From NCBI GenBank assembly GCA_964483625.1, contig CAZABB010000001.1, positions 67,222 through 131,221 of the forward strand: DNA of 64,000 bases. The letters run 5' to 3'. The notes beneath the pieces were generated by a model, which was given only the letters and a program-made list of their open reading frames with translations, searched no databases and was not told the origin of the DNA. The translations under genes and the position numbers were made by a program. This DNA comes from an uncultured Planctomycetia bacterium. Its GTDB lineage: Bacteria; Omnitrophota; Gorgyraeia; Duberdicusellales; 4484-171. This document shows positions 662 through 25,904 of this stretch, piece after piece (position 1 is the stretch's first letter; each line of letters begins with the position of its first letter).

Positions 662-770
662 TTCTCAACCTCCCGGGAATATCCGCGTCTTCTTTATTTT
701 TTTGACAGTCCAGAGAAGCGTATCCACCAGCATCGATAGAATTATCAAAAGGATTAAACGGCAGATTTTC

Positions 771-2471
771 TTAAAAGTAGCGATATAAATCATACAATTT
801 CAGTTCTTCAAGCGTCCGGATAATTGTTTGATGGTTGTCACAGTGATCGCAGTGCTCGTCATAGAGTACCTGTCCGTTAAGGAATTGAGCGTCCCGGTGA
901 CTTTTGAGATATTTTGCCTGACGCCGCCACTGCCAGTATTCGGGTGAATACCAGACTTCTTTAAAGGACTTCTTGTCCAGATATCCTACCGTACGCAGAT
1001 GACAGCAGAAACTCATGTCGTATTGAGCCGGAATAAGATTGAAATACCAGCCGATCGTACACCCGTGGTTTAAGAAGAAACCTTTTGACCAGGCTCCGGT
1101 CTGTTCATCATAATGGTTTAGTTGAAATTCAAAATTATCGACAAGTTCTATATTATGTTTCCGTAAGAGCCGAGTGATCTCCGGGATCATTTTTCTCATA
1201 GCATGGACTTCTTCCGGTTTTAACTGCAAGAATCGATTCATGACATCCAACCGGATCAGATAGAATCGTACCGCATCCGGCGCGATTTCAACATCCATCT
1301 TGGCCATCTCGACCAACTCATGATAGTTCATCGTATGGATCACATGGCTGACAATGAGGCGGGGATGCCGTCTCTCCTTTCGCCGGCGGATCCGCATTAA
1401 TCGTTTAAGGTTCTCTTTAATCGCATAAAACGTCTCCGCGGGTTGTGTGACACAGACCTCATGATACGTCCGGGCCGTACCGGCGGGGAAGCTACAGTAA
1501 ATCTCATTCACCCCTAGATCAATGATTTCCTCTGCTTTCGCCTTATCCAGAAGGATTCCGTTGGTAAAGAAGAGCACTCCCAGGTTTTTATTCCGGGCAT
1601 ACCGTAGCATCGGCATGAATTTCTCATACATCAACGGTTCTCCGTCACCCTGCAGGATGATTCCGTCAACCATCATGTCCGATGCGTCATCGATAATGGC
1701 TTTGAACCGTTCGAAATCAAACTTACGATTCAGGAACTCCTCCGGTTGCGTTACCGCCGGCGTATGCACCCAGCAATGCTGACAGCGGGAATTGCAGCGG
1801 TGAAAAGGATCGAAAACGATTGTCTGCGGCCCGATAAACACCTGTTCGGTAATGACGCCGAGCAACCGCAATAGATCTTTTTCTTTACCGGAATTACAGC
1901 GAGCATGCCGGGCTACTTTATCAATGATTTCTTCCAGTTGATCATCGCAGGATTCAATCTCGATGGGATACGATCGAATCGCATCCTGCATGCAAGCCAT
2001 ATATTCTCTGAAGTGTTCGGTCAAATCCTCTACGGGAAAAAGACGCAGAGAGGGAAGCCGTATCTCCCACGGCATCCCCAGAAGATCCAGGCAACACTTG
2101 ATAATCTTGGGAATACGGAAAAAATTGTATCTTGATACCCCGACTACAATACGTATCTCCCGATCTGTTTGCGAAGCGGCCCGGATTCTGTCGGTATTTC
2201 TTTGAAAGCTCCCGGTTTCTCCCGTTATCTTCTCATGGAGCTCAGCGAAATCTCCCCACAGATACACCTGAGAGCTGTCTTGAGCGGACGGGAGCACTCC
2301 TACCCCCTTGCTTTTTTGCCCGCACATACCTACCTTGCTATTTTTTCCGGTAATATTTTTAAGAAAAGCGGTTTTTTTGAATGAGTTAGGGAGCCACATC
2401 TTCATGCATTTCCTCCTTATAACAATTGACCATTCCCGCGCAGTTCTTTCGGCAGCGACGTATTCTCTCAC
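771..2471 (-). CDS. Radical SAM/SPASM-domain protein with a ~230-aa N-terminal extension; shorter paralog of the C-terminal ~560 aa of the 1056-aa protein at 21666..24836
   Basis: CNSRCQHCWVH cluster (C-x3-C-x2-C), GDGEPL, FFTNGILLD, C-terminal CCHLRT...CDHCDNHQ Cys-rich tail. The N-terminal region (VYLWGDF...IRIVVGVSRYNFFRIPKII...LRLFPVEDL) aligns to residues ~560-660 of the 1056-aa protein. The start is uncertain because of an 86-nt overlap with the upstream gene. Confidence 0.75.
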   Translation of the reverse strand: MREYVAAERTAREWSIVIRRKCMKMWLPNSFKKTAFLKNITGKNSKVGMCGQKSKGVGVLPSAQDSSQVYLWGDFAELHEKITGETGSFQRNTDRIRAASQTDREIRIVVGVSRYNFFRIPKIIKCCLDLLGMPWEIRLPSLRLFPVEDLTEHFREYMACMQDAIRSYPIEIESCDDQLEEIIDKVARHARCNSGKEKDLLRLLGVITEQVFIGPQTIVFDPFHRCNSRCQHCWVHTPAVTQPEEFLNRKFDFERFKAIIDDASDMMVDGIILQGDGEPLMYEKFMPMLRYARNKNLGVLFFTNGILLDKAKAEEIIDLGVNEIYCSFPAGTARTYHEVCVTQPAETFYAIKENLKRLMRIRRRKERRHPRLIVSHVIHTMNYHELVEMAKMDVEIAPDAVRFYLIRLDVMNRFLQLKPEEVHAMRKMIPEITRLLRKHNIELVDNFEFQLNHYDEQTGAWSKGFFLNHGCTIGWYFNLIPAQYDMSFCCHLRTVGYLDKKSFKEVWYSPEYWQWRRQAKYLKSHRDAQFLNGQVLYDEHCDHCDNHQTIIRTLEELKLYDLYRYF

Positions 2472-3450
2472 GGATGTCTTCGGCCTTTTCTGAATGCCAG
2501 AGGTCTCTTATGCTATCTTTTTTAACATTGCCTATTGATCCCATTTCACAACACAAATGAGCATCTCCTTGATGATTCACATTCAAAAATTTATCTCCTA
2601 AATAACAAGGGATATCTCTGACCGATTGCTGAGGGTTAGCGAAATATCGTTTGAACCGCTCAAGCTGGGCAATCGGGTTATCGATCCGATAGCCCGAATT
2701 TTTGCGGGCGATCAACGCGTCGATCACAGAATAAACCCGGGGAATATCCTTCGGCCAGAGGCTGTTGAACTCTTCCTTTCGATACCAAAACGGGTCGATA
2801 GGAACCATATTCGGCCGCATCAATGCCATAAATGATACGGAAATACCGTTGTCCTGAACCCATTCGGTCAGATCTAGGATACCTTCCAGATTCGGCCCCA
2901 TGATGATCGTCTGAAGATTAATATTTTTCAGTCTCCCCCGATAGTCATTCAAATAGCCGACTGCCTGTTTAGCACGAATACATGCCCCCTTTGTTCCCCG
3001 CAGGGTATCGTGTACGGTCTCATCCATACTATCGAGCGAAACGGGAAGAAAAGTCAATCCGGAATCGGCAACGCGCCGGGCGGCATCACGATCGAGAAGG
3101 AATCCATTGGTCACCATCGAGGAAAAGGGAAAGTCCTGTCTCCCGATAAATTCAATAAGTTCAAATATTCCCTGTCTCATCAGCGGCTCGCCTCCGGCGA
3201 TATTGATACCGAAAGAATCACTCGCCAACCCTTTTAGTTCCATGATAAACCGGGATAATTCCTCATTGCTCATTTCATTCCCGTGGCAGGAGCTTTTCCA
3301 GGTGTGGCACATCTTGCATCGAAACATACACCGTTGCGTTACTTCAATCACACAAAAATTCAATTTTTTCATTTCCCGTTTTAACATTTCTTTTTCAAAA
3401 CTTCGCCCTTTCCCGTTTAATCTTTTGGTTTCACTTTCAAGATATTCCAA
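2386..3450 (-). CDS. Radical SAM/SPASM-like protein, short tandem paralog (family A)
   Basis: CMFRCKMCHTW, GGEPLM, MVTNGFLLD, LDSMDETVHDTLRG, C-terminal CYLGD...HLCCEMGSIGNV...CRKNCAGMVNCY. Confidence 0.8.
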   Translation of the reverse strand: MEYLESETKRLNGKGRSFEKEMLKREMKKLNFCVIEVTQRCMFRCKMCHTWKSSCHGNEMSNEELSRFIMELKGLASDSFGINIAGGEPLMRQGIFELIEFIGRQDFPFSSMVTNGFLLDRDAARRVADSGLTFLPVSLDSMDETVHDTLRGTKGACIRAKQAVGYLNDYRGRLKNINLQTIIMGPNLEGILDLTEWVQDNGISVSFMALMRPNMVPIDPFWYRKEEFNSLWPKDIPRVYSVIDALIARKNSGYRIDNPIAQLERFKRYFANPQQSVRDIPCYLGDKFLNVNHQGDAHLCCEMGSIGNVKKDSIRDLWHSEKAEDIRERIRRCRKNCAGMVNCYKEEMHEDVAP

Positions 3451-5438
3451 AACCGTCCCATTTTATAAAAAAGACTGTTACGAATTTTATCATTATAATA
3501 TGCTGCTTCCTTCTGATTGCCGTCGATAGCCAATATGTCCCCGAAAACCTTCAGCGCTAATTCATAATTACGCTGACGGTAATATAGCTGCCCCAATCCC
3601 AGAAGGGATACCACGTCGTGAGGCACCTTTCCCAGAACATATTCGAACTCCTTCCTGGCCTCTCTCACACGGCCTTGAACCAGGAAACAAAGTCCGAGTC
3701 CTTGACGAGCATACACATTCTCATTCGTTATCCTTAATGCGTTCTGAAATGCCTGTACAGCCTCCGGAACCTGCTTCAACTCATAATAACAAACTCCCAA
3801 TTCCTGATGAATATGAGTATTCTCCGGTTCAAGATCGAGAGCCTTGCGGAACATTTCGATAGCCGGCCCGAATTGATTTTCCATCCGGTGGCATTTACCC
3901 AGCTCATAGTACGCCCAGCCGGCACAGGAAGGATTCCGAAGAACCTCATGATATTCCTGACGCGCCCGGGAGAGATCTCCTACCGCGGCATAACAAACCC
4001 CCAATTCCTGATGAATATGAGTATTCTCCGGTTCAAGATCGAGAGCCTTGCGGAACATTTCGATAGCCGGCCCGAATTGATTTTCCATCCGGTGGCATTT
4101 ACCCAGCTCATAGTACGCCCAGCCGGCACAGGGATTACTCTCCAGTATGAAACGATACTCCTGAGCTGCTTTCTCTAATTGATTTGTTGCCATATAACAA
4201 ATACCCAATTGGCGGCGCACTTCTTCACCCATACCGTTAAGAAGACTAAATTCCCTAATCGCCTTATCATGTTGTCCTAAGGCGGCGTAACACATCCCTG
4301 CATTTCTACGTACCTCTTGATTTCCCGGCTGGTTTTGCAGTATTTGCATAAACTCGCCGGCGGCGCGATCGAATTCCCTTCCCGCCATATAATATTCTCC
4401 CGAACGCAGATGGGAACGAAAATGATATTCATCCTCTTTTTCAAAGGCAACCATGAAGTTAATTACACAACATCGTCTTCCCGCCCCCCGCTGATTTATT
4501 TTGGCGCGAATCGCATCCGCTCTGGAAGAAAACCAGAGCGTCCGGAGATCATCCTTCTGAACATTCCCCAGTACATACCCACTGAGATAAATCGTACCTG
4601 TTTCATCCAAATCCAATATGTAATCGTGAATATGACAATCCGTTTCTTTCATAAAAACGTCCGGATCGACATAGTACTTTTTAAATGCTTCAAGCTGGGC
4701 GTAAGGATTCCAGATTTTAAAGCCTCTTTTCTTTAACATTATCAACTCGTCCATCACTCTGTGCAATGTAGCCGTATTTTGCGGCCACAGCTGATTATAC
4801 TCCGGCCTCCGGAACCAGTTGTTACGGGGATGAACAAGCCCGGTCTCCTGCAAAGCGAGGAAAGATATCTGTTCAAATGCGTCCTCGTTGTTTACCCAGT
4901 GTGTTAATTCAAGGATATCATCCAGATTCTTTTCCATGATAATGGTAAGGATCGTAAGCGCCAAATTATCTTTCCGGTTATGTTTATGCCTTTTAAGATA
5001 GTCTATAGCCCTCAGAACTTTCTCGAGAACGCCTTTTTCTCCCCTTAAGAAATCATGAACATGCGGTCGCAAACTTTCTAGAGAGATCGCCAACACATTC
5101 AACCGGGACGCGACGATACATTTGGCAAAATCTTCATCAATGAGGCAGGCATTTGTCGAGATAATCGACGTAAACCCTTTGTTGCCGATATAATCACAAA
5201 GATCAAGACACCAATCGATCAGAAACGGTTCCCCTCCCATAATATTTATTTCCAAAGAAGGATTTTCAACCAGATCCCGCAGTGAATCAATAAATCTTTT
5301 CGCCTGGTCAAAGGTGAGCCCGGGAGAATCCGAACCACATTTCCAAGCCGTACACATCTTACAATGCAACATGCAACGGTTGGACAACACAATATCACAG
5401 AATCTCGGGTAATGTATCGAAAACGAAACATCCTTCAT
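3417..5438 (-). CDS. Radical SAM (family A) fused to C-terminal TPR repeat domain
   Basis: N-terminal CMLHCKMCTAW, GGEPF, STNACLID, Cys-rich CVINFMVAF region. The C-terminal ~330 aa are TPR-like (YYELGKCHRMENQFGPAIEMFRKALDLEPEN, repeated exactly twice). Confidence 0.75.
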   Translation of the reverse strand: MKDVSFSIHYPRFCDIVLSNRCMLHCKMCTAWKCGSDSPGLTFDQAKRFIDSLRDLVENPSLEINIMGGEPFLIDWCLDLCDYIGNKGFTSIISTNACLIDEDFAKCIVASRLNVLAISLESLRPHVHDFLRGEKGVLEKVLRAIDYLKRHKHNRKDNLALTILTIIMEKNLDDILELTHWVNNEDAFEQISFLALQETGLVHPRNNWFRRPEYNQLWPQNTATLHRVMDELIMLKKRGFKIWNPYAQLEAFKKYYVDPDVFMKETDCHIHDYILDLDETGTIYLSGYVLGNVQKDDLRTLWFSSRADAIRAKINQRGAGRRCCVINFMVAFEKEDEYHFRSHLRSGEYYMAGREFDRAAGEFMQILQNQPGNQEVRRNAGMCYAALGQHDKAIREFSLLNGMGEEVRRQLGICYMATNQLEKAAQEYRFILESNPCAGWAYYELGKCHRMENQFGPAIEMFRKALDLEPENTHIHQELGVCYAAVGDLSRARQEYHEVLRNPSCAGWAYYELGKCHRMENQFGPAIEMFRKALDLEPENTHIHQELGVCYYELKQVPEAVQAFQNALRITNENVYARQGLGLCFLVQGRVREARKEFEYVLGKVPHDVVSLLGLGQLYYRQRNYELALKVFGDILAIDGNQKEAAYYNDKIRNSLFYKMGRFWNILKVKPKD
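3789..4132. repeat. Internal direct duplication (~140 bp identical copies at 3789..3928 and 3992..4132, 204-nt period) inside the TPR part of the rSAM-TPR gene
   Basis: Identical strings ...aacaaac(t/c)cccaattcctgatgaatatgagtattctccggttcaagatcgagagccttgcggaacatttcgatagccggcccgaattgattttccatccggtggcatttacccagctcatagtacgcccagccggcacagg occur twice. They encode an exact 49-aa protein repeat, a pair of TPR units. Confidence 0.9.
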
Positions 5439-5450
5439 TTCACACCTATT

Positions 5451-6455
5451 CTATCTAGATTCTTCTTCATACCAGCAATTGATAATATGATGGCAGTTCT
5501 TCGCACACCGGGCAATCTCCTCCCTTCGTTTTTCCGCCGCTGATGAATGCCAGATATCCTTAAAACCTGCCGTTTTTATATTGCCGATTCCCCCCATAAA
5601 CGGACACATATTGATTTCCCCTTCGGGATTGACTGAAAACGTTGTACCCTGGACCATATTACATACGTATCTTTTGATAAAATGGTCCGGATGTGAGAAA
5701 TATTCTTTAAAAACACTAAGCTGAGAAAGGGGATTTACAATTTTATACCCCTTTTCTTTCCGGCTGATAAGCTGATCAATCACTGAATCTGCCAATTCTG
5801 TGTCTTGCGGCCAAATCCAGCGATATTCTTCATCCTGATACCACCGTTCTCGAGGAGAAGTATGAAAAGGCTGCATGACTGCCTGTAAAAAAATATGGTG
5901 AATAGTGCCGTTCTGCTGTACCCAGTCGGTCAACGGCACGATATCCTCCATATTCGGCCCCATGATTACTGTATCGATGGCAACTTCAAGGTTTGTTTTA
6001 TGGCGTCTAAGCGACTCGATTGCTTCCATCACCCGCCGATAGCTTCCTTTTATTCCCCTCAAAAAATCATGAATTTGTGCGTCAGTACTGTATAACGTCA
6101 ATGCGATGTTGTTCAAGCCGGAATCACAAAGCTGTTTTGCTAATTCTTCGGTCAAATCATACGCACTGGTTGCCAAGGAGGTCCGGAAGCCCTGCCGGGC
6201 ACAATAACCAAGCAACTCAACAAGCATATCGGGTAATCGCAAAGGCTCTCCTCCTCCGAAGATTACACAGAAATCATCGTGAACATGCCCGGAGATGGAC
6301 TTCAAAAAGTCTTTCCATTGCTCAACCGACGGCCGGATAATGTTTTTCTCGTCGTTCTTCCATAGATGACACATCCGGCATCTTAATCCGCAACTTAATG
6401 TGAGTAACGCCACACAACTCTTTGGTTTCATACTTTTGACCGGACGAGAAATCAT
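5451..6455 (-). CDS. Radical SAM/SPASM-like protein, short tandem paralog (family A)
   Basis: CGLRCRMCHLW, GGGEPL, ATSAYDL, TLYSTDAQIHDFLRG, C-terminal CNMVQG...CPFMGGIGN...CAKNCHHIINCWY. Confidence 0.8.
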   Translation of the reverse strand: MISRPVKSMKPKSCVALLTLSCGLRCRMCHLWKNDEKNIIRPSVEQWKDFLKSISGHVHDDFCVIFGGGEPLRLPDMLVELLGYCARQGFRTSLATSAYDLTEELAKQLCDSGLNNIALTLYSTDAQIHDFLRGIKGSYRRVMEAIESLRRHKTNLEVAIDTVIMGPNMEDIVPLTDWVQQNGTIHHIFLQAVMQPFHTSPRERWYQDEEYRWIWPQDTELADSVIDQLISRKEKGYKIVNPLSQLSVFKEYFSHPDHFIKRYVCNMVQGTTFSVNPEGEINMCPFMGGIGNIKTAGFKDIWHSSAAEKRREEIARCAKNCHHIINCWYEEESR

Positions 6456-6477
6456 TTATCACCTCTGGTTGAAACTG

Positions 6478-7485
6478 TTATTCAGACGAAGCGACAGGAG
6501 GAAATGATTGTTCCTCTTGAAAAAAACAATTAACCATCGATTTACAATTACGTTTGCACTGGCGGATATGTTTACGAACATCTCTCGCTTTCTCCCCCAG
6601 CCACATATCTGGGAATCGATCGGAATGAATATTCCCAATCGGCGCAAGCGACTGGCATAAAAACACATCGCCGCGCGGGTTAATACTAAGAGAACTGTAC
6701 CCTAAATGACATTGACTACGTTTAATGGAACGTTCCGGATTATTAAAATAGGCCTTAAATGCCTTCAACTGTCCAATCGGATTGTTGATTTTAAACCGAG
6801 TTTCTCTTAAATTAATCAATTCATCAACAATCGAGTTTATTTTCTCAAAATTCTGCGGCCAGAGAAATTTAAATTCATCTTTTTGATGCCATTGATTGTC
6901 CGGTTCGGTATTAAAAGGCTGCATAACCGCCTGGAAACTGATCCCGTCAATCTCATTGCGGGAATCGACCCATCGGGCTAAATCAATGATCTCATCGAGA
7001 TTAGCCTCCATAATGGTCGTGACAATATTTATCTGAGGATATTCTCGTCTACACTGCGAAACAATTTCGATTGCCCGCAAAACTTGATCATGAAGTCCTT
7101 TTTTCCCACGCAAATCATCATGAATACGAGGATTAAGACTATCTAACGAAAAGACCAGCGTATTCAATCCTGAAGATATAATTTTTTCAGCTACAGTCCC
7201 ATCGACTAAAAATCCATTGGTCGTCATCGTAGTAGTAAACTCTTTCTCGGCAGCAAAATGGATAAGATCGAATATCCCTTCTTTTATAAGAGGCTCCCCT
7301 CCGACAAATTGTATTTGCACAGCACTACCGAAATATTCATACAGTTGCCGCAGAAATTCCTTCCATACGGCAGGCGGAGTAAATGATGAGTTATTCGGAA
7401 TCCTCCACATCCGACACATCTTGCAACGCAAAAAACAATTCTCGAGGAGGATAAGATCGCAATGTGTTAATTGTCGACTCCTCAT
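6478..7485 (-). CDS. Radical SAM/SPASM-like protein, short tandem paralog (family A)
   Basis: CFLRCKMCRMW, VGGEPL, MTTNGFLVD, SLDSLNPRIHDDLRG, C-terminal CHLGYS...FLCQSLAPIGN...CKRNCKSMVNCFF. Confidence 0.8.
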   Translation of the reverse strand: MRSRQLTHCDLILLENCFLRCKMCRMWRIPNNSSFTPPAVWKEFLRQLYEYFGSAVQIQFVGGEPLIKEGIFDLIHFAAEKEFTTTMTTNGFLVDGTVAEKIISSGLNTLVFSLDSLNPRIHDDLRGKKGLHDQVLRAIEIVSQCRREYPQINIVTTIMEANLDEIIDLARWVDSRNEIDGISFQAVMQPFNTEPDNQWHQKDEFKFLWPQNFEKINSIVDELINLRETRFKINNPIGQLKAFKAYFNNPERSIKRSQCHLGYSSLSINPRGDVFLCQSLAPIGNIHSDRFPDMWLGEKARDVRKHIRQCKRNCKSMVNCFFQEEQSFPPVASSE

Positions 7486-7492
7486 AATGATC

Positions 7493-8515
7493 TTACAGTA
7501 ATGTCTTATCGATAAAACAATTAATCCCGATGAGACAGATATGCCGGCAATGATAGATCTTCTCTCTCTGCAATTGCGCTTCTTTCGAATACCACAAGTC
7601 TTTTAGCTTTGCACTGCGCACATTACCCAAAGATGAGCCTTGGGAAGGACAGAGAAAAGCCTCCCCCGTAGGCCTTAGATATATGGAATAATTCCCCTGC
7701 CGACAACGTATTTTTTCCCCATACGTTTGAGGATTCTGGAAATAGTTTTTAAACATTTCCAATTGTTCCCGGGAATTCGCAATTTTATAACCAGCTTCCT
7801 TATATTTAATTAATGTGTCGATAATTTTCGCCATATCATCTTTATCATGCGGCCAGAGGTCACTCCATTGTTCTTTCTCATACCACTGAGCATCTCGAAC
7901 CGTGGCAATAGGCTGAGATACTGCCTGATAATAAATGGCACCTAAATATTTGTTATCCTGCATCCATTGAGCAAGCGGGATAAGGTCATCTTTATTTTTT
8001 TCCATGATGACCGTAAGAAGGCTGATACCCCGAGCCTTTACGGCGATCAGATAATCAAGAGCGCGCATAAGATGTTGATACGCTCCTTCTTTTCCTCTCA
8101 GTGAATCATGCGTGGACTCATTGAGGCTTTCTAGAGAAAGACTGATGACATCGAGCCCTGAAGCAACGATTTCCCGCGCTACGGACTTATCAATCAGAAA
8201 CCCATTGGTCACCATAGCCGTCGCGAATCTCTTCTTATGTGCATAGTGGACCAAATCGAAAATCCCCTCTTTGAGCAGAGGTTCGCCGCCGACGATATGA
8301 ATACGAATATTATCCGATCCGAACTCCTCGAGTGAGTCCACCACACGCATCCATTCTTCAATCGAGAGCTCTTCCTCGGCGGGCTCATTTTCCCAGAATC
8401 TACACATTTTACACCGGAAAAAGCAGCGTTCGGTTATTCCAATATCACAAAAAATCGGAGGTGTTATTTCCCCCTCGATACTATGTCTCTGAATTGATTG
8501 ATTTAAATCGCTCAT
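7493..8515 (-). CDS. Radical SAM/SPASM-like protein, short tandem paralog (family A)
   Basis: CFFRCKMCRFW, VGGEPL, MVTNGFLID, SLESLNESTHDSLRG, C-terminal CRQGNY...FLCPSQGSSLGN...CRHICLIGINCF. Confidence 0.8.
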   Translation of the reverse strand: MSDLNQSIQRHSIEGEITPPIFCDIGITERCFFRCKMCRFWENEPAEEELSIEEWMRVVDSLEEFGSDNIRIHIVGGEPLLKEGIFDLVHYAHKKRFATAMVTNGFLIDKSVAREIVASGLDVISLSLESLNESTHDSLRGKEGAYQHLMRALDYLIAVKARGISLLTVIMEKNKDDLIPLAQWMQDNKYLGAIYYQAVSQPIATVRDAQWYEKEQWSDLWPHDKDDMAKIIDTLIKYKEAGYKIANSREQLEMFKNYFQNPQTYGEKIRCRQGNYSIYLRPTGEAFLCPSQGSSLGNVRSAKLKDLWYSKEAQLQREKIYHCRHICLIGINCFIDKTLL

Positions 8516-9485: not shown

Positions 9486-9500
9486 AGACGGATTCTTTCT

Positions 9501-10483: not shown

Positions 10484-10486
10484 ATC

Positions 10487-11527: not shown

Positions 11528-11544
11528 CGGCTATTTTTGTTCGT

Positions 11545-12564: not shown

Positions 12565-12579
12565 TGCATTCTCTTTCGG

Positions 12580-14725: not shown

Positions 14726-14737
14726 TTGTAGACATTT

Positions 14738-16865: not shown

Positions 16866-16867
16866 CG

Positions 16868-17938: not shown

Positions 17939-17959
17939 CCTCTGACTACAATGGTTTCC

Positions 17960-18106
17960 TTACGAACGGCCGAATTGCTTCCAGTCGATCCCTCGCCGTT
18001 TACATTCCCGCCGCCACTGTATATATTTTACTCCGCGGTAAAAGGCATAAAAAAGCCCGTGCGCCCGACAGTGTTTACGGAATTTCCGCAAATATGTTTC
18101 CACCAT
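17960..18106 (-). CDS. Small basic hypothetical protein (48 aa) in the only sizeable gap inside the rSAM array; candidate precursor peptide or small regulator
   Basis: Minus-strand ATG at 18106 is preceded by a strong SD (AAGGAGGgggaaagATG). Translation: MVETYLRKFRKHCRAHGLFYAFYRGVKYIQWRRECKRRGIDWKQFGRS, stop at 17960-17962. It is below the track's 60-aa cut-off. No homology could be assessed. Confidence 0.35.
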   Translation of the reverse strand: MVETYLRKFRKHCRAHGLFYAFYRGVKYIQWRRECKRRGIDWKQFGRS

Positions 18107-18121
18107 CTTTCCCCCTCCTTC

Positions 18122-19468
18122 TTAGCGTATGCCGGCGTACCCAGCCGGCTGTCTCTCGCATGTATTTTTGATTTCCTTCTCTCCCAGCGGTTTTTCCCGA
18201 TCCCTTTTCCCACGCAGAAATTTCATCGTTTTTGCCAGAGAAACCAGTATTTTCTTCTGCCGGGGAGAAAGCGAAGCAATGCGGCCGTGCATATACCGGT
18301 TATGACCGAGATTATCGCAGCTTTTATAACATCCCATCCTGGCATCCCGATCGTTTCCGATCAGCGAAAAGAATTCATCCGCGGGATTCATATGAAGCGT
18401 TTTTTCCCGAAACTGCCTCTGCCGGGGGCCGTTCCATATCCGGGAGAACTTATCTTGGTGGATATTTCCCACGGGAAAACGGTGGGACTTCAGGCACGAA
18501 TTCACATTGCCGTCGGCCAGGATACGGACAAACACCCATCCGGCATAACAGGGAATTTCGTTAATCACATTGGAATCGTATTGGGCGCATTGAGAATCAC
18601 AGTTGGCAATCCGGCGCACAAAATCTTCAAATCCGAACAGAAAAGATATTTGGTTATTCTTCTCTCCCCAGCGGCGCCGGATCGATTCGCAACGATTCAA
18701 CAAATCTCCGCATTGCCTTTCATCGAGAAGCAACCGGTCGGTTTTGCCGGGAATCGTATCGATAACCGTGAATTCGACCATTTCCGAACCCGTTTGGCAG
18801 GCCAATTCAGCCATGCGTTCAATATCATGGTAATTCTCGGAAAAGATGACATGATATATTTTTACCCGGGGTAATTCGCGTTTGGTCCGATTCAAAAGAT
18901 CCAGCATGTCTTTGATACGATAAAACGTGCTCTTATCTTTATTGGGATGCGTAGCGGAATAAATCTCCGGCGTCCCCGCCCAGATACTCACCGTGAGCGA
19001 ATCAACGCCCAAGCGCACCAGCTCCTTTACTCTGAATTCATCAACGAGAGTAAAGTTCGTATTCACATAGCATTCAAATCCCCGTTTTTTAGTATATGCC
19101 AGGATATCCATAATGTCCGGGTGCATAAACGGTTCTCCGCCGCCGGCATAATATATCTGCCGGGTACCCATACGCGCCAGTTCATCAAGGAGTTTTATCA
19201 CCCGCCGGCGGGGAAGCATCTGCTTTTTTACCGATGGGGAGATCTTCTTTTCTCCCAGAAGCGGCGAGTTACACCAACAGCCGATGCAGTCGTTATTACA
19301 GTCGTTAGTTAAATCGATCTGCACAAAGTCGGGCCCTTTATAGGCATACGTCCCATCAATCACACCCAGAGCGTCAAGATAACAACCGCGCATCTTCCTC
19401 GCTACCGACCGTCCCCCTTCTTTTTTCCAGTGCGATAATACCTTGCTTACTGTCCTTTGATCGATCAT
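18122..19468 (-). CDS. Radical SAM protein (distinct family, 448 aa) with Cys-rich C-terminal region
   Basis: DLTNDCNNDCIGCWCN (C-x3-C-x2-C), YYAGGGEPFMHPD, NTNFTLVD. Further Cys motifs (CDSQCAQY, CYAGW, CLKSH, CYKSCDNLGHN) suggest auxiliary cluster(s). Confidence 0.75.
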   Translation of the reverse strand: MIDQRTVSKVLSHWKKEGGRSVARKMRGCYLDALGVIDGTYAYKGPDFVQIDLTNDCNNDCIGCWCNSPLLGEKKISPSVKKQMLPRRRVIKLLDELARMGTRQIYYAGGGEPFMHPDIMDILAYTKKRGFECYVNTNFTLVDEFRVKELVRLGVDSLTVSIWAGTPEIYSATHPNKDKSTFYRIKDMLDLLNRTKRELPRVKIYHVIFSENYHDIERMAELACQTGSEMVEFTVIDTIPGKTDRLLLDERQCGDLLNRCESIRRRWGEKNNQISFLFGFEDFVRRIANCDSQCAQYDSNVINEIPCYAGWVFVRILADGNVNSCLKSHRFPVGNIHQDKFSRIWNGPRQRQFREKTLHMNPADEFFSLIGNDRDARMGCYKSCDNLGHNRYMHGRIASLSPRQKKILVSLAKTMKFLRGKRDREKPLGEKEIKNTCERQPAGYAGIR

Positions 19469-21669
19469 TTCTTTCTATGAGACTTACGTTTTCGAAAGTC
19501 CTCCTCGACAATCTTCAGGTGTCCGGAGAAAAAGAAACAATCCTGCCGGACCTCTTTTTGATGACCGTTCGTTTTAACTCCCACCATACGTGCTCCCGGA
19601 TATACGGAAGCGTTATTGACATAGGAGGTATATTCATCGGATTTTTTCGTATATTCCAGTAATACCGTAGGTAGCTGGCCGCGCCACCTTTTCCTGCCTC
19701 GTAATCCTACAAACTCACTGCGGGGATTGCGTATTTTTACCTCGGTGAAATCATCAAGACCGGGGAATCCGCCTTCTCCCCAGGAATCCACCCATTGCCG
19801 GTATCGTTCCGAAAGGACAACCCCGATCTTACGTCCGGAAACCGGAAGCGGGAACTGAGTCTTCAGAGAAACCTTCCATTCTATCTGCTTCTCGTCGGGG
19901 ACATTAATTTTCCAAATCTCCTCTACGGGATGAAGGCCGTATTTAGTCTTTAAGATGACGCCGTTACTGCCTTGTCGCTCGAAATCCCAGCAGCCTAAAG
20001 AAGAGTGATGGAATTGACCGTTCTCCAAAGACACTTCGCTGACCAGACCCGCCCCTTGTGTCAATTTCATTCCACCCCAATAGATCTCGATTTCGTTATG
20101 TTCAAAGATGATCTCCAGTCTTCCGACCCTGATCCTCTTTTCCGGAGCAACGACACGCATCTTCCTGCGTTGATCCCACAACCTCTCTTTGGGAAGAATG
20201 ATCAGCCGCCGGAAAAAGAATCTCCCTGTCTTAAACAGAGCCATGAAGACACCGTCTTTTTTTAACGTCGACCAAATCAACTGAAGATAATAGTACACCC
20301 GATTGCCTTTCTTTGCCCGGTGCTGCCGGATATATTTCTTGACCCATCGGCCATAGGCATACCGTACCGCTTCGGTCAGATCTTTACTCGTTAATTCATC
20401 CAGATGGATGACACTCCGGTGATTTCCGTCATACTCCGACCAGCGCCGTGAACGTAACGCGCCTTTACGATCCATTTCCTTGTAGAAATCCGTACCCGGG
20501 AAAGGAGTCGCGATGGAAAACTGGACCGTTTCCGGATCCAACCGCAAGGCGAAATCGGTAGTATCCTGGATCGTCTGTCTGGTTTCTCCGGGCAGCCCGA
20601 AGGTAAAGGTAAGATGCGTTTTGATATCCAGCATCTTGGTAAACTTGATAATCTCTTCAGTACGTTTGATGTTCATATTCTTATCTATACCGTCGAGCAG
20701 CGCTTGCGACGACGATTCAACTCCGTATTTTACGGCATAGAGACCGGTTTCTTTCATATTTTGTAAGATCTCTTCATCCATAAGATCTGCTCTCGCCATG
20801 ATTGCCCATGGCACATCTAATTTTCGTTTCTTTATTTCGGCACAGAAGGCAAGCATGCGGTCTTTTCCGATATTGAACGTATCGTCATCGAAATAAATCG
20901 ACTTAAATTTCATCTCCTTGGTCAAGAACTCCATCTCATCAACAACATCGACGATATCCCTTGTGCGGTAATTATGTCCATGATACATAACCTGCGGCCA
21001 GAGACAGAACTTACAACGGAACGGACAACCGCGGGAAGCAAGCATCTGGGCTGAAGGCAAAGGAATGTCCCCCGGGCTGTCATTATAGCGGTACATCGGG
21101 AGACCCTCCCGCAACGGCCACGGCAAAGCGTTTAAATCCGTCAACGAACGTAACGGTGTACGATGAATTCCTTCCCGATTCCGATAGATCAATCCCGCCA
21201 CAGAAGCCAAATCCCGGCCGGCACGAAGGGCTTTCACCAGTTCAAGCAGAGTAAATTCATATTCCCCCACAAGCACGTAACGAACAAAGGGATATTGTTT
21301 CAGAAACGATTCACTGCGGATATTTACATCCGGGCCACACAAAACAAGATGAATACGCGTTCCCAGACGGCTTAACAATCGCAGATCATGCTCGAGAGTA
21401 ACGGTGGAAACCTCACATACCAGAAGATCCGGCTTCAATGTGCGCATTGAGTGCAGGAACGACCGGTAAGAAATCCTCTGAGCGATCGCATCGATTAAGG
21501 TCACCTTAAAATCATGCTTCTTAAGCAATGCCGCCGCATAGGCCAGAAAAAACGGAAAGGGAAGGTAGTCGGTCTCGGTGGGCCCTTTCAAATGCGGCCA
21601 GCGTGAACCGGCTCGCACTCCCTGCTTGCCGGATTGCCTCCACGGTAGATTTGCTAAAACGATCTTCAT
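19465..21669 (-). CDS. B12-binding domain/radical SAM (class B) protein with ~300-aa C-terminal extension carrying one copy of the W-rich module
   Basis: N-terminal MKIVLANLPW...FLAYAAALLKKHDFKVTLIDA (cobalamin-binding Rossmann-like), then CPFRCKFCLWPQV radical SAM cluster. C-terminal IEIYWGGMKLTQGAGL...WKINVPDEKQIEWKVSL...SERYRQWVDSWGEGGFP. Confidence 0.8.
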   Translation of the reverse strand: MKIVLANLPWRQSGKQGVRAGSRWPHLKGPTETDYLPFPFFLAYAAALLKKHDFKVTLIDAIAQRISYRSFLHSMRTLKPDLLVCEVSTVTLEHDLRLLSRLGTRIHLVLCGPDVNIRSESFLKQYPFVRYVLVGEYEFTLLELVKALRAGRDLASVAGLIYRNREGIHRTPLRSLTDLNALPWPLREGLPMYRYNDSPGDIPLPSAQMLASRGCPFRCKFCLWPQVMYHGHNYRTRDIVDVVDEMEFLTKEMKFKSIYFDDDTFNIGKDRMLAFCAEIKKRKLDVPWAIMARADLMDEEILQNMKETGLYAVKYGVESSSQALLDGIDKNMNIKRTEEIIKFTKMLDIKTHLTFTFGLPGETRQTIQDTTDFALRLDPETVQFSIATPFPGTDFYKEMDRKGALRSRRWSEYDGNHRSVIHLDELTSKDLTEAVRYAYGRWVKKYIRQHRAKKGNRVYYYLQLIWSTLKKDGVFMALFKTGRFFFRRLIILPKERLWDQRRKMRVVAPEKRIRVGRLEIIFEHNEIEIYWGGMKLTQGAGLVSEVSLENGQFHHSSLGCWDFERQGSNGVILKTKYGLHPVEEIWKINVPDEKQIEWKVSLKTQFPLPVSGRKIGVVLSERYRQWVDSWGEGGFPGLDDFTEVKIRNPRSEFVGLRGRKRWRGQLPTVLLEYTKKSDEYTSYVNNASVYPGARMVGVKTNGHQKEVRQDCFFFSGHLKIVEEDFRKRKSHRKK

Positions 21670-24600
21670 GTCCTCATGAATTTCTCTAAACCATATTCCT
21701 TCATATTTTCATGGATACGGAGAATAACCTGATGCGTATCGCAATTATTACAGAACTCGTCATAGAGCCTAACTCCGTTTTTCAGCACGACATTTTTATT
21801 GTGCGTAAGATCTTTTGCCTGGATCCTCAGCTGGTTATATTCGGGAGAATTCCAGATCTCTTCCAATGATCTTCCGTTGATCGAATCAATCACGCGCAGA
21901 TGACAGCACATACTTACTTCTCCCTTAGCCAGCACCAGACAGAAAAACCATCCTACCGGACACCCCAGTTTTAAAAAGGCGTTTTCCGACCAATATCCCG
22001 TACGGGAATCGTAATGTTTCAACTGAAACGATAAATTGTCTTCGATCTTTCTTTCCTGTTCATTGAGATAACAACTCACCTTTTTTATCGAATCTCTCAT
22101 TTGTTCGATGTGTTGAGACTGCAACTTAAGATTTTTGATGTTTTGATCTATACGGGCAAGATAAAACCGTATCTTATCCGCGCCTACAGCGACATCTGTC
22201 CTGGCCATCTCTTCCAATTCATGATAGTTGAGCGCATGGATCACATGAGTCATCTGTACCAAAGGCATCCGTTTCCCCAAAGCATTACGTAGAGAAATAA
22301 GGTTGGAAAGATTTTTCGTAATGACACCAAAGATATCTTTTGACTGCTTTGAATTAATCAAAGCATAGGTCTGCGCCGTCCCGGCGGGAAGACTGCAGAA
22401 AATTTCATTAATCTCAAGCTCAAGCAAAATCTTGGCTTTTTTTTCGTCAAGCAAGATCCCATTGGTAAAAAATAACACTTTCAATCCTTTGTTCCGGGCG
22501 TAACGAACCATATCGATAAAACGGGTATCCAGAAGCGGCTCACCGTCACCCTGAATGATAATCTCATCACAAAGAAGTTCAGCCGCATCGTCGATAATGC
22601 GCCGGTAGAGATTGTCGTCCATCTTTAACTCTTCATCCTGCCGGGACGAGACACGCTTTGGATTATGGATCCAGCAATGGATGCAATCGGTATTGCACGA
22701 ATGGAACGTATCCAGAACAATGGTCTGGGGACCGATAAAGGCGTGCTCGCATATCACTCCCAGAAGGCGCAATAGATCTTTTTCATTGTGTTGATCGGCC
22801 GAAGTAGAAACCAGCGAAAGCAACTCCAGCAGATCGTGGTCTTTTAAAAAAAGCTCGATACCCGTATGTTGTATACGCGTATTCAATTCGCGCAGGTATT
22901 CAATAAAATACGCCAGAAGATTGCGCACCGGGAAGAGCGACAGAGAGAGTGAACGCAGATCGATACGCTGATTCATCAGCGTCGAGGCATATTGGACAAT
23001 CTCAGCCAGCCGGAAAAAATTAAACTTGGTGACGCCGATGCGGAGATTGGTATCTCCGGGAGATATATTTTTGATCCTTTCCTGGATGCGGAGAAACTCC
23101 TCAGACTGATCACCCGCTTTATCGTGCAACACAGCGTTATCACCGTAAAGATATATCGCATTTTTCTTGTTTTTATCGTCCGGCCGGGTTTCGACAAACA
23201 CGTTTTCTTTTTTCAGACGCGCGGCAAGTTCTTCTATCCTTTCTGCGCACGCACGCTTGTCCGAGAGACGTTGAAATTCCTCCTGTCGTCTTTTTCTCTC
23301 CTTTTCTCTACGCTGTCTGAGCCGGGCAACAACTGCCTGCAACCGTTCTCTCCGAGGATAAAACCGAATAATACCTCTGAGCGTCACGATCGTACCCGCC
23401 TGCGGGGATCCCATTGTTTCTTCTCCCGACGCCTCCAAGATACATGCCGAAGAATCGATATCGCCATGATATACCGACAAAGAGGAGAATTTTGTGTGCT
23501 CATTTTGAAACGTAAAACCGGGGATGTTTTCTTTTTGTGGCAATACGCCGATAAAGGCGGGCGGAGCATCGCCGGGCTGATTCATGGGGACCCAATGGGT
23601 ATCGAACCGTGCCGGGAAAGAACCGGAATCCGGACCGGCGACCCATTCACGATATCCTTTGGAAACAAACAAAGAAGCCTTAACGTAATCTATCAGCAAA
23701 GGCTGACGGCATTCTATGTCGACATTCCAGATAAGAGCATCCTCTTGAGAGAAAGTCAAATACCATTTCTGTACGAGGGGCAGATGATGTAATCTAAAAT
23801 AAATGATCATTTCTTTCGCCGATGGTCGTTCTACCGTTACGGTCGAATCCCTCGAGCTGTACCATCGCCCTCCCGTCAGGCAGACCACTCGGAAACCGTC
23901 TCCTTTGGTAATTTCATGTTCACCGTGATACATATATATCTGATTGGCAGGGTCAAGATAAAGCCTGTAAGCCCCCCGGGACAGGGTACATCGCTGTTCC
24001 TCTTCTTTCTTCTCTCTTAGAATACGCTGCTGTTCCTGTCTCTCCCGATCTGAAATATGTTTTTCCAGCAAACTCCGGCTGGGATCGATCTGAAATTCTC
24101 CCGTGCCGCAAAGATATTCACCCGGAAGGAAAGATTCGTCTTTCCGGCAAAAACGGAATTCAAAGATGCGGCAGGATAAAGTGAGATCGCTGGTATAAAG
24201 ATGGGAAACGGCCGGGTGAGGATAAAACGAATGGAAAAGCAGCGTGGGATATTCCTCCTGCGAAGAAAGCGCGCCAAACTGATCTGAAGTATCCCGGGAT
24301 AACTCGACCGGTGATACATACGTGTCGGAAAACGAAGGGAAACATCCCCGGCGGCGGGAATCGCTCCAGCTATCATAAAACCGAGAGACATAAAACTGAA
24401 CATGCACCTCATCCAGACGCAATGGCACGCTGGTATTCACATACATTTCCCATCGTATGTTCTTATCCGGCGTGATGTTCATTTTCCACCTTTGCGTAAA
24501 AGAAGATTTAGCAGCCTGCGAAACGATCTCCATTTCGACGGGAGAAATTTTACGTATGCCCAGCCGGCCATCACAAAAATGATGCCATTGAGCTTCGGAT

Positions 24601-24836
24601 AACACTCTGGTGCTCAAACCATGATATTTTGTAATCTCGGTCTCTCCCCAAAATATCCTCAAACGGTTATCCTCGTCAAACCATACCCGGCATTCACTAT
24701 CTCCGATGGTTCTTTCAGTAATACGTTCCTGCGCTTCCAACATTTGGAACTTTTTGATTCGTTTTCTAAACATTTCTCTTAGTGCGCGCATAACACCCGA
24801 TTTTTCTTCGGCACACATCGGAAGAAAAACGGACAA
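21666..24836 (-). CDS. Large (1056 aa) multidomain radical SAM/SPASM protein: two N-terminal W-rich modules, middle domain, then C-terminal rSAM
   Basis: C-terminal CNTDCIHCWIHNP, GDGEPLLD, FFTNGILLD, CCHLRVIDS...CNNCDTHQ (as in ORF 771..2471). N-terminal LRIFWGETEITKYHGL...WKMNITPDKNIRWEMYV...SRFYDSWSDSRRRGCFP and IYMYHGEHEITKGDGF...WYLTFSQEDALIWNVDI...SKGYREWVAGPDSGSFP. Confidence 0.8.
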   Translation of the reverse strand: MSVFLPMCAEEKSGVMRALREMFRKRIKKFQMLEAQERITERTIGDSECRVWFDEDNRLRIFWGETEITKYHGLSTRVLSEAQWHHFCDGRLGIRKISPVEMEIVSQAAKSSFTQRWKMNITPDKNIRWEMYVNTSVPLRLDEVHVQFYVSRFYDSWSDSRRRGCFPSFSDTYVSPVELSRDTSDQFGALSSQEEYPTLLFHSFYPHPAVSHLYTSDLTLSCRIFEFRFCRKDESFLPGEYLCGTGEFQIDPSRSLLEKHISDRERQEQQRILREKKEEEQRCTLSRGAYRLYLDPANQIYMYHGEHEITKGDGFRVVCLTGGRWYSSRDSTVTVERPSAKEMIIYFRLHHLPLVQKWYLTFSQEDALIWNVDIECRQPLLIDYVKASLFVSKGYREWVAGPDSGSFPARFDTHWVPMNQPGDAPPAFIGVLPQKENIPGFTFQNEHTKFSSLSVYHGDIDSSACILEASGEETMGSPQAGTIVTLRGIIRFYPRRERLQAVVARLRQRREKERKRRQEEFQRLSDKRACAERIEELAARLKKENVFVETRPDDKNKKNAIYLYGDNAVLHDKAGDQSEEFLRIQERIKNISPGDTNLRIGVTKFNFFRLAEIVQYASTLMNQRIDLRSLSLSLFPVRNLLAYFIEYLRELNTRIQHTGIELFLKDHDLLELLSLVSTSADQHNEKDLLRLLGVICEHAFIGPQTIVLDTFHSCNTDCIHCWIHNPKRVSSRQDEELKMDDNLYRRIIDDAAELLCDEIIIQGDGEPLLDTRFIDMVRYARNKGLKVLFFTNGILLDEKKAKILLELEINEIFCSLPAGTAQTYALINSKQSKDIFGVITKNLSNLISLRNALGKRMPLVQMTHVIHALNYHELEEMARTDVAVGADKIRFYLARIDQNIKNLKLQSQHIEQMRDSIKKVSCYLNEQERKIEDNLSFQLKHYDSRTGYWSENAFLKLGCPVGWFFCLVLAKGEVSMCCHLRVIDSINGRSLEEIWNSPEYNQLRIQAKDLTHNKNVVLKNGVRLYDEFCNNCDTHQVILRIHENMKEYGLEKFMRT

Positions 24837-24851
24837 TTTTCTCCCGGCCGC

Positions 24852-25904
24852 CTAGGCGTTCCTTTCCGAATCTCCGTCGAACGAACAATTAAAACGAAAA
24901 TGACAAAATTCGCGGCATTCCCGTATGTTCTGCCGCACGCAATGAGCCTTTTGGGAAAACCACATCTTTTCTATACTTTCTTCCCTCACGTTTCCCAGGG
25001 ACTCTTTTACAAAACAAAGGTAGACTTCACCCGAAGGATTAATATTCAAATCTCGATCACCAATCGTACAGGGAAGGCGAGGAACCCCTTCCCGCGGATC
25101 TGTAAAATAGGCCCGATAGGCACGCAATTGCTCAACCGAATTAGCAATTTTCGCGTTGGACGCTTTCGCCGCCAGCACAGCCTGGATGTTCCTTTCCGAT
25201 TCGCGGGAATCATCAGGCCAGAGCACACCGTATTCTTCACTTTTACGCCAGGACTCATCCTGCCCCGAGCCAAAAGGGCACACAATTGCCTGAAAATAAA
25301 TATAATCGATCCGGTCATCCCGCCTTACCCATTCCGTCAGAGGCAAAAGCTCTGTGATATTCTGCTTCATAATCACCGTCTGAATATTAATCCCCACGCC
25401 GGGAGCGTAACGGCGAAGATAATCGATCCCCCGCATCACGCGCATAAACGCCCCTTGAACTCCCCGCAACCTATCGTACACCTCCTCCTTCAGACTGTCT
25501 AAAGAAATACAGACTCTCCACACACCCGCATCGCTTATTCTTTTGGCGAGATCTCTATCGATAAGATAGGCATTCGTGTCAATAGACACTTTATATCCAC
25601 GCCGGGAAGTCACATAGGCCATATCCAATATATCCTGCTTTAAAAAAGGCTCGCCGCCGGAAAATATAATGTCGTGCTGAGGATTATAAAAGTTTCTCAG
25701 GCTCTCAACAACCCTGCTCCACTGGATAACCGTAAGTTCGTCCAAAAAACTCGTTTCCTCCCGCCAGATACGGCACATGCGGCAGCGAAACATACACCGT
25801 AACGTTGCCACAAAACAACAGTAGGATGGCAGTAAACCCGATGGGGATCCCTCCGGACATAAAAACCTATCTGTTTTCTTGTTTGTATCCATAGGCGTCG
25901 ACAT
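24852..25904 (-). CDS. Radical SAM/SPASM-like protein, family A paralog (first rSAM of the operon)
   Basis: CMFRCRMCRIW, SGGEPF, IDTNAYLID, SLDSLKEEVYDRLRG, C-terminal CTIGDR...YLCFVKESLGN...CREFCHFRFNCSF. Confidence 0.8.
   Translation of the reverse strand: MSTPMDTNKKTDRFLCPEGSPSGLLPSYCCFVATLRCMFRCRMCRIWREETSFLDELTVIQWSRVVESLRNFYNPQHDIIFSGGEPFLKQDILDMAYVTSRRGYKVSIDTNAYLIDRDLAKRISDAGVWRVCISLDSLKEEVYDRLRGVQGAFMRVMRGIDYLRRYAPGVGINIQTVIMKQNITELLPLTEWVRRDDRIDYIYFQAIVCPFGSGQDESWRKSEEYGVLWPDDSRESERNIQAVLAAKASNAKIANSVEQLRAYRAYFTDPREGVPRLPCTIGDRDLNINPSGEVYLCFVKESLGNVREESIEKMWFSQKAHCVRQNIRECREFCHFRFNCSFDGDSERNA

Follow-up and report, generated by a model that had tools for sequence, protein, structure and literature searches.

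What would a bacterium use 19 radical S-adenosylmethionine (SAM) enzymes for whose genes follow each other directly behind those of a putative glycan exporter? The question is raised by a 64,000-nt stretch of DNA from an uncultured bacterium (GenBank assembly GCA_964483625.1, contig CAZABB010000001.1), the whole of which is referred to here as the window. Its open reading frames (ORFs) include an unbroken run of minus-strand genes leading from position 31549 to position 771. In the order of transcription these encode a Y1 transposase-like protein (30851-31549), an FAD protein (29494-30864), an ABC-2 permease (28734-29507), a 939-aa ATP-binding cassette (ABC) ATPase (25904-28723) and the 19 radical SAM (rSAM) proteins (25904 to 771). 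We propose, with a probability of roughly 0.55, that this rSAM battery tailors a lipid-linked, probably galactofuranose-containing glycan before it is exported by the ABC transporter.

All 19 genes lie on the minus strand between positions 771 and 25904, and every product exceeds the Pfam gathering threshold of the rSAM domain (PF04055; 32.7-97.3 bits versus 29.5), as an earlier note on this DNA had assumed. That note had counted about 20 such genes, 19 of them intact and one frameshifted; our count is 18 intact genes plus one with a 1-nt frameshift. Fifteen of the 19 proteins form a single rSAM/SPASM family of about 340 aa, termed fam340, which comprises 13 intact stand-alone members, one fusion to tetratricopeptide repeats (TPRs) and the frameshifted copy. 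The family size of 15 given previously is correct if the TPR fusion (3417-5438) is included, but not without it. The other four are proteins of 566, 448, 734 (class-B-like) and 1056 aa, and the accessory enzymes described in the note (a class-B enzyme, two large SPASM proteins with extra domains, the TPR fusion) were all recovered. The SPASM model PF13186 matches 14 of the 15 fam340 proteins as well as the 448- and 1056-aa proteins with 22.1-42 bits (cut-off 21.5); in the same Pfam search the TPR fusion had no match, the class-B enzyme did not exceed the threshold, and the 566-aa protein scored just under it (19.1 bits). Genes of the run are separated by 2-24 nt or overlap, the sole larger gap (17938-18122) being occupied by a 48-aa ORF, and on the basis of this spacing a single operon across the run is plausible. 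A promoter and terminator scan of positions 1-20000 yielded no excess of sites (36 versus 32 and 19 versus 22, real versus shuffled), and an Rfam scan detected no riboswitch but only a tRNA-Arg.

The fam340 paralogs share 29-45% (median 34%) of their amino acids in pairwise alignments. At the DNA level they resemble each other only in motif stretches of 30-60 nt (60-87%), and long near-identical repeats between paralogs were not found. Near-identical DNA had been named in the earlier note as an observation that would speak against an old expansion. Recent duplication and assembly collapse are excluded by these values, and the substantial divergence that the note had described is borne out. Its sequence motifs were likewise recovered in the alignment (CxxxCxxC...W, GGE, HDxLRG, WP and the C-terminal Cx12Gx4C...Cx3Cx5C). 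Both the cysteines of CxxxCxxC and the SAM-binding motif GGE are invariant across 117 aligned family members. Conserved C-terminal cysteines number five (C259, C277, C310, C314 and C320 in the numbering of the 6478-7485 protein), and a near-invariant N-terminal cysteine, C9, is located 8 residues ahead of the cluster motif.

The age of the expansion is indicated by comparison with other loci (numbered with the prefix L), which derive from metagenome-assembled genomes and several metagenome contigs, mostly Candidatus Omnitrophota by label. A profile search returned hundreds of fam340 members whose named sources are mostly Candidatus Omnitrophota/Omnitrophica. Tandem fam340 arrays are present in all 13 GTDB loci that were recovered with an alignment of the orthologs of one paralog, and in several metagenome contigs, with 2-12 copies per locus within +/-10 kb. 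Reciprocal-best orthologs of 10-12 of the 15 window paralogs occur in each of L010, L011, L005 and L017 at 39-78% identity and in the order of the window, while L013 and L016 provide reciprocal-best orthologs for three more; with these two loci included, the number given for the best loci is 12-13. For most family members identity between orthologs exceeds that between paralogs. On a 1.26-Mb contig of GCA_028707125.1 Wzm-Wzt is followed downstream, in the overlapping loci L019 and L017 taken together, by at least 18 rSAM genes, and the array includes proteins of 1057, 734 and 439 aa ordered like the 1056-, 734- and 448-aa proteins of the window. Since reciprocal-best orthologs are found in the same order, the expansion predates the split of these lineages, with each paralog individually retained, and the array is an ancient conserved cassette. 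The earlier note had inferred iterative or combinatorial tailoring of one substrate. By contrast, each paralog is conserved one-to-one, and this speaks for roles of the 15 paralogs that are fixed, distinct and non-redundant rather than combinatorial or fast-evolving. It also bears on the idea that the array diversifies rapidly in the service of conflict or antigenic variation of a surface structure. Copy numbers of 2-12 in the neighbourhood of each locus, the fusions, the frameshifted copy and the adjoining transposase-like gene would fit such a model, which is nevertheless extremely unlikely given the collinear one-to-one orthogroups across distant genomes, the higher ortholog than paralog identity for most members, and the lack of near-identical DNA repeats between paralogs.

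Not only the array but also its surroundings are conserved. The gene order UGM-like (UGM, UDP-galactopyranose mutase), Wzm, Wzt, rSAM was observed in five of five neighbourhood look-ups (L016, L019, L020, L021 and L022), for which Wzt homologs or the paralog adjoining Wzt, and not the main array, served as starting points. In L020, L021 and L022 the UGM-like gene is located just upstream of the Wzm gene, and L016 likewise has it in this block. The UGM-Wzm-Wzt block is directly preceded in L020 and L021 by genes for a PF00953 phosphoglycosyltransferase and a family 4 glycosyltransferase (GT4), and in L016 by a GT9 gene instead. L023, which has a Margulisiibacteriota label and was reached from another fam340 paralog, displays the order GT2, Wzm, Wzt, rSAM and lacks a UGM-like gene. 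Also encoded in related arrays are GDSL/SGNH proteins, an NAD-dependent sugar epimerase/dehydratase and an amidotransferase of the asparagine-synthase type. A small number of homologous loci bear the label Planctomycetes, Patescibacteria, Deltaproteobacteria or Margulisiibacteriota, and these off-phylum labels may result from binning errors or gene transfer. Going by homolog labels and synteny, the host of the window locus is taken to be a Candidatus Omnitrophota-like bacterium.

The permease of the transporter (28734-29507, minus strand) is of the Wzm type (PF01061, 49.3 bits), with galactan Wzm/RfbD as best NCBIfam models, under their cut-off. The Wzt-type ATPase (25904-28723, minus strand; PF00005, 79.2 bits) has TagH and galactan Wzt as best NCBIfam models, again under the equivalog cut-offs, and 387 homologs at E<=1e-30 with named sources mostly from Omnitrophota. 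Its C-terminal two-thirds consist of three copies (residues about 238-465, 467-706 and 712-939) of an all-beta domain of about 225 aa for which no Pfam model was found. According to BLAST and alignment, two further copies make up the N-terminus of the 1056-aa rSAM protein, and one forms the C-terminus of the class-B enzyme. Structurally, this shared domain matches the galactose mutarotase-like supersandwich fold. Columns that are invariant across all six copies hold T, W, W, Y, W, F, P and G, and there is no invariant His, Glu or Asp that could correspond to the catalytic His/Glu of aldose-1-epimerases. Because the invariant residues are mostly aromatic and no His, Glu or Asp is conserved, the alignment suggests a binding module and not a catalytic epimerase.

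An exhaustive hidden Markov model (HMM) search with the shared domain found 611 cluster representatives, compared with only three in a word-indexed search. Domain architectures were counted in the best 150 of the 611. In this set, 85 proteins are made up solely of a Wzt ATPase and 2-5 copies of the shared domain. In two others (P0136, 1856 aa; P0248, 1217 aa) a Wzt ATPase and shared domains are fused directly to a 566-type rSAM enzyme, and a further 11 combine the shared domain with a 566-type or class-B rSAM enzyme. Up to nine matched stretches occur in one homolog. In P0186 and in a protein of L002 a class-B enzyme, a shared domain, a 448-type rSAM enzyme and a second shared domain follow each other. 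The comparison loci additionally encode a GT2-rSAM fusion (L020, 13934-15862) and a glycosyltransferase of the PMT_2 (GT-C) type that ends in a shared domain (L013, 17301-19622).

The FAD protein encoded upstream of the permease gene (29494-30864, minus strand; PF01593, PF13450) is a homolog of eukaryote-type UGM. Homology is full-length, with a phmmer E value of 2e-55 to Trypanosoma cruzi UGM (PDB 4dsg) over residues 19-430 and of about 1e-42 to the Aspergillus UGMs. Divergently oriented from the run, a plus-strand glycan-assembly operon (31789-36942) encodes, according to Pfam, GT4, GT2, GT4 and GT4 enzymes and a WecA/MraY-family phosphoglycosyltransferase (35965-36942; PF00953, 104.8 bits), the best NCBIfam model of the latter being WecA, under its cut-off.

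Do the fam340 enzymes then act on the glycan itself or on its building blocks? An AlphaFold2 model of the paralog encoded at 6478-7485 (pLDDT 93.7) retrieved SkfB as the top and BlsE as the second full-length Foldseek match (TM score 0.70/0.72), both at about 17-19% identity, and also SuiB, DesII, BtrN, MoaA and viperin; sugar- and nucleotide-acting enzymes stand among these matches beside maturases of RiPPs (peptides that are synthesized by ribosomes and then modified post-translationally). Closest solved structures to the model, at only 12-20% identity, are SkfB, BlsE, SuiB, CteB, DesII, anSME and MoaA. The best NCBIfam scores lie at about 80-110 bits, while the models concerned (NirJ/AhbD, MoaA, GeoRSP, PqqE and tungsten-cofactor maturase) have cut-offs of 265-650. 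Membership in the HpnJ, NirJ/AhbD, MoaA, PqqE or GeoRSP families was rejected on the basis of scores far under the NCBIfam cut-offs. The structural proximity of BlsE, DesII, MoaA and viperin, the bare fam340 architecture, and the presence of nucleotide-sugar chemistry in the cluster (the UGM homolog here, the NAD-dependent epimerase/dehydratase in related loci) would be compatible with fam340 acting on soluble nucleotide sugars or small lipid-linked monosaccharides and thereby producing various unusual monosaccharides that glycosyltransferases then polymerise. Yet 15 rSAM steps on nucleotide sugars far exceed the five to six glycosyltransferases encoded here, the shared domain or a Wzt fusion ties at least three other rSAM enzymes to the polymer or its exporter, and both fam340-fam340 and fam340-TPR fusions suggest complexes on a large substrate. 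We consider chemistry at the precursor level unlikely, although it is the strongest of the rival readings.

SkfB, SuiB and CteB being top matches, and SPASM-containing rSAM enzymes being typical RiPP maturases, a ribosomal peptide that is modified by the array and exported by the ABC transporter has to be weighed as well. The candidate precursor is the basic 48-aa product MVETYLRKFRKHCRAHGLFYAFYRGVKYIQWRRECKRRGIDWKQFGRS of the small ORF in the larger gap, termed pep48 (17963-18106, minus strand), which is preceded by a strong ribosome-binding site (AAGGAGG) and located between the genes of the 448-aa rSAM protein and the first member of the contiguous fam340 run. A homolog with 53% identity is present at the same position in L010 (614-754) and a partial copy in L013 (3-59), but pep48 was not detected by tblastn or HMM in L002-L009, L011, L012 and L014-L018, and its conservation extends from end to end, which is not typical of leader-core precursors. 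No PqqD-like domain or RiPP recognition element (RRE) was found by Pfam in any rSAM protein of the locus; in fam340 only about 17 residues precede the cluster motif, which leaves no room for such an element at the N-terminus. Moreover, a leader peptidase and a C39-type exporter are both absent, the transporter being an ABC-2 system of the Wzm/Wzt type with sugar-fold domains, and the glycan-gene context is conserved across genomes. A peptide product is very unlikely on these grounds. The earlier note had allowed for an exported glycan or a peptide as substrate; the shared sugar-fold domain, the Wzt-rSAM and GT2-rSAM fusions and the conserved UGM/Wzm/Wzt block favour the first, and the lack of a detectable RRE disfavours the second.

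Modification of a membrane lipid or of a polyprenyl- or hopanoid-like glycolipid (cyclisation, cross-linking, methylation), flipped or exported by the ABC-2 transporter, represents another conceivable function. The NCBIfam matches of the class-B enzyme include HpnJ and TIGR04072 ("lipid biosynthesis B12-binding/radical SAM"), the fam340 profile matches the tetraether synthase GDGT-MAS (E=6e-19), and genes of the GDSL/SGNH "lipase" family are interspersed in related arrays. Furthermore, antiSMASH-type surveys have reported "ladderane-like" clusters in Omnitrophota (PMC9902471). However, these rSAM matches are generic and far under the family cut-offs, and neither the window nor the related loci examined showed any genes for squalene cyclase or for fatty-acid or isoprenoid functions. 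The module common to exporter and enzymes has a carbohydrate-associated fold, and the partners are a UGM homolog together with phosphoglycosyltransferase, GT4/GT2, GT9 or GT-C genes in several loci. A lipid substrate thus appears distinctly unlikely.

Several observations weigh against tailoring of an exported glycan, our preferred reading. Sugar binding by the shared domain is deduced from its fold alone, at 5-12% identity, and the Wzt protein has no match to the established Wzt_C carbohydrate-binding domain (PF14524) at E<=0.01. As the shared domain is absent from the stand-alone fam340 proteins, a nucleotide sugar or another compound could be their substrate. No NCBIfam model is matched above its curated cut-off by any rSAM protein of the locus, the top Foldseek and sequence matches include SkfB, SuiB and CteB as well as the lipid enzyme GDGT-MAS, and the small ORF pep48 is conserved inside some arrays. 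We infer, rather than observe, the substrate class, the timing before export and the activity of all paralogs.

Within the proposed glycan pathway, the UGM homolog would probably supply UDP-galactofuranose, and the roughly 19 cytoplasmic rSAM enzymes would remodel the glycan by 5'-deoxyadenosyl-radical hydrogen abstraction prior to export via Wzm/Wzt. Candidate reactions include oxidation, epimerisation, dehydration or deoxygenation, decarboxylation, and C-C or C-O cross-linking. As a glycan-recognition module on Wzt, the 1056-aa protein and the class-B enzyme, the galactose mutarotase-like domain of about 225 aa could hold enzymes and exporter on one polymer, and such common recognition would couple tailoring to export. 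The 15 fam340 paralogs may represent separate, non-redundant catalysts, every one of them responsible for a different site or step. Those without extra domains may work on the polymer, with TPR proteins and tandem fusions possibly organising the complex. It is tempting to speculate further that about 19 radical enzymes extensively rewrite the backbone of a surface polysaccharide after its assembly, by a "RiPP-like" logic of site-specific epimerisations, deoxygenations or inter-residue C-C or C-O cross-links, and that they are recruited via the new glycan-recognition domain which they have in common with the exporter; this stronger version is tentative and, in our view, rather doubtful.

The individual fam340 genes, all on the minus strand, are described here from the distal end of the array. 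The product of 2386-3450, of about 330 aa when read from an internal Met (PF04055 70.9 bits, PF13186 38.8 bits, family HMM 466 bits), has reciprocal-best orthologs in L002, L012 and L013. In the 673-aa TPR fusion (3417-5438) the rSAM core is intact, several cysteines of the C-terminal auxiliary cluster are lost, and the TPR tail follows. L010 and L011 encode a fam340-fam340 double protein whose first half is the counterpart of this fusion; the fusion and its neighbour gene together match the double protein. A 204-bp tandem duplication of 91% identity (3786-3960 and 3990-4164) in the TPR tail doubles about two TPR units and is the sole recent-looking repeat of the region. Orthologs of the 5451-6455 product show 46-55% identity in the reciprocal-best comparison, and the gene at 6478-7485 encodes the paralog chosen for structure modelling. 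The frameshifted copy (9501-10483, in two parts, 9501-10253 and 10163-10483) lacks one base near 10205-10215 in the context GGGTG^CTG but has an otherwise intact frame, and it has reciprocal-best orthologs at 39-42% identity in L010, L011, L005 and L017; the gene has either decayed to a pseudogene very recently or been affected by a sequencing error. The ORF at 12580-13755, whose real start is probably near 13596, has orthologs at 49-73% in the reciprocal-best set and at up to 75% in L008, and that at 14738-15784 has orthologs at 69-76%. Family membership of the genes at 7493-8515, 8481-9485, 10487-11527, 11545-12564, 13664-14725, 15777-16865 and 16868-17938, the last being the first of the contiguous run, is based on Pfam and reciprocal-best ortholog comparison. 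The fifteenth gene (24852-25904) is located apart from the others directly downstream of Wzt, and its reciprocal-best ortholog (52% identity) has the same post-Wzt position in L016; the database form of its product is P0003 (346 aa), the start of which probably differs.

Of the four other rSAM genes, again all on the minus strand, that of the 566-aa rSAM/SPASM protein (771-2471; PF04055 58.9 bits) is the last of the array, and its orthologs occupy the array end in L010, L011, L012 and L013. Its true start is probably downstream of the listed GTG. An extra N-terminal domain of about 145 aa, termed Ndom566, directly precedes the rSAM core of this protein (residues about 60-215) and recurs with 39% identity in the 1056-aa protein (residues about 561-700); it is conserved in orthologs at other loci and has no Pfam match. 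The 448-aa rSAM/SPASM protein (18122-19468; PF04055 76.2 bits, PF13186 42 bits) has orthologs beside arrays in L005, L006, L010, L017, L019 and L021, and is fused to the class-B enzyme in the aforementioned P0186 and L002 proteins. The 734-aa class-B-like (B12-binding) enzyme (19465-21669), with the shared domain at residues about 516-734, scores best with HpnJ (TIGR03471), yet the 247.7 bits obtained versus a cut-off of 577.6 characterise it as related but not a member. Its PF02310 (B12-binding) score of 27.1 bits is likewise under the cut-off of 32.1, and its nearest solved structure is AprD4 (E=1e-28). AprD4 and HpnJ, the nearest characterised relatives of this enzyme, act on sugar moieties. 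In the 1056-aa rSAM/SPASM protein (21666-24836) two shared domains (about 41-270 and 283-505) are followed by Ndom566 and the rSAM core, and orthologs of 1057 and 1095 aa keep their relative order in L019 and L021.

At its upstream end the run starts with the Y1 (IS200/REP-associated) transposase-like gene (30851-31549, minus strand; PF01797; NF047646 63 bits versus a cut-off of 80), which overlaps the start of the UGM-like gene by 14 nt. As it is missing at the equivalent position in L016, L020 and L021, it is probably a lineage-specific insertion outside the system. About 3 kb past the divergent glycosyltransferase operon, among pyrimidine-biosynthesis genes, a further GT2 gene (39808-40959, minus strand) has a sub-threshold best match to MftF/EpsD-like proteins and could be part of this pathway or stand apart from it. 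The genes pyrF, pyrD, carB and pabB to the right of the cluster show that it is chromosomal, which rules out a mobile-element or plasmid origin. An ORF for a 675-aa protein (59432-61459, minus strand) has no NCBIfam match at E<=1e-10. Nearly all genes of the window (1-64000) are on the minus strand, and the GC skew is negative in every 2-kb bin, which is consistent with a report that genes in complete Omnitrophota genomes are strongly strand-biased per replichore (bioRxiv 10.1101/2023.11.21.568195). In L019 (1-8470; GCA_028707125.1) a Peptidase_S74 protein of more than 3000 aa is encoded close upstream of the Wzm-Wzt-rSAM block, with only a small 23S_rRNA_IVP gene in between; it may be one of the large surface proteins typical of the phylum.

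We rate the cluster as an ABC-transporter-dependent glycan cluster with an unusually large and ancient rSAM battery and a new recognition domain common to exporter and enzymes; that its product represents new polymer chemistry is a substantial possibility, though less likely than not. If the proposal is true, this would be by far the densest concentration of rSAM enzymes on one glycan pathway known to us, and a search of the literature, which did not span all journals, found no report on such arrays. The cluster occupies more than 25 kb and is conserved across a largely uncultured phylum of ultra-small, probably host-dependent bacteria. It would comprise a new rSAM/SPASM family, divided into some 15 orthogroups of ancient origin, and a new sugar-fold recognition domain which takes the place of the classical Wzt carbohydrate-binding domain and physically links enzymes to the exporter. 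The predicted outcome is a chemically unusual, probably galactofuranose-containing envelope polymer of Omnitrophota that may matter for attachment to prey or host. Rewriting after assembly, if true, would imply that the cell-envelope polymer belongs to a new chemical class and the rSAM enzymes to a new functional clade, and the paralog set could serve as a natural series for rSAM active-site diversification on one scaffold.

Export pathways depending on ABC transporters of the Wzm/Wzt type are exemplified by D-galactan I of Klebsiella O1/O2, mycobacterial galactan and the E. coli O9a antigen, the Wzt of which carries a carbohydrate-binding domain. The locus studied here shares with them an ABC-2 permease, a C-terminally extended Wzt-like ATPase, a WecA-family initiating transferase, GT4 and GT2 enzymes and a UGM homolog. 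By contrast, the extension of Wzt consists of three galactose mutarotase-like domains instead of the PF14524 jelly-roll, and all transporter matches are under the curated cut-offs. To our knowledge, no known Wzm/Wzt cluster includes a battery of about 19 rSAM genes. With the sugar-acting rSAM enzymes BlsE, DesII, BtrN, AprD4 and HpnJ, the enzymes of the locus have the rSAM core in common, with or without a twitch/SPASM auxiliary domain, but they are only 12-20% identical and reach no family cut-off. Moreover, the known enzymes occur singly or in twos or threes and act on small molecules, whereas 15 paralogs plus four other types, some with domains of a glycan-binding fold, are encoded here.

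The architecture of an rSAM core followed by a C-terminal Fe-S domain is also that of the RiPP maturases SkfB, SuiB, CteB, PqqE and MftC. Differences are the lack of an N-terminal RRE in fam340, five conserved C-terminal cysteines versus the 7-Cys SPASM motif, the lack of a universal precursor gene in the arrays, and the glycan-gene context. Finally, Azotobacter vinelandii possesses seven AlgE mannuronan C5-epimerases, which are secreted, Ca2+-dependent and non-radical enzymes. They may offer a parallel, at the level of concept, for several paralogs that each pattern one polysaccharide; unlike them, however, the fam340 set is predicted to consist of cytoplasmic Fe-S/SAM enzymes, encoded beside the exporter.

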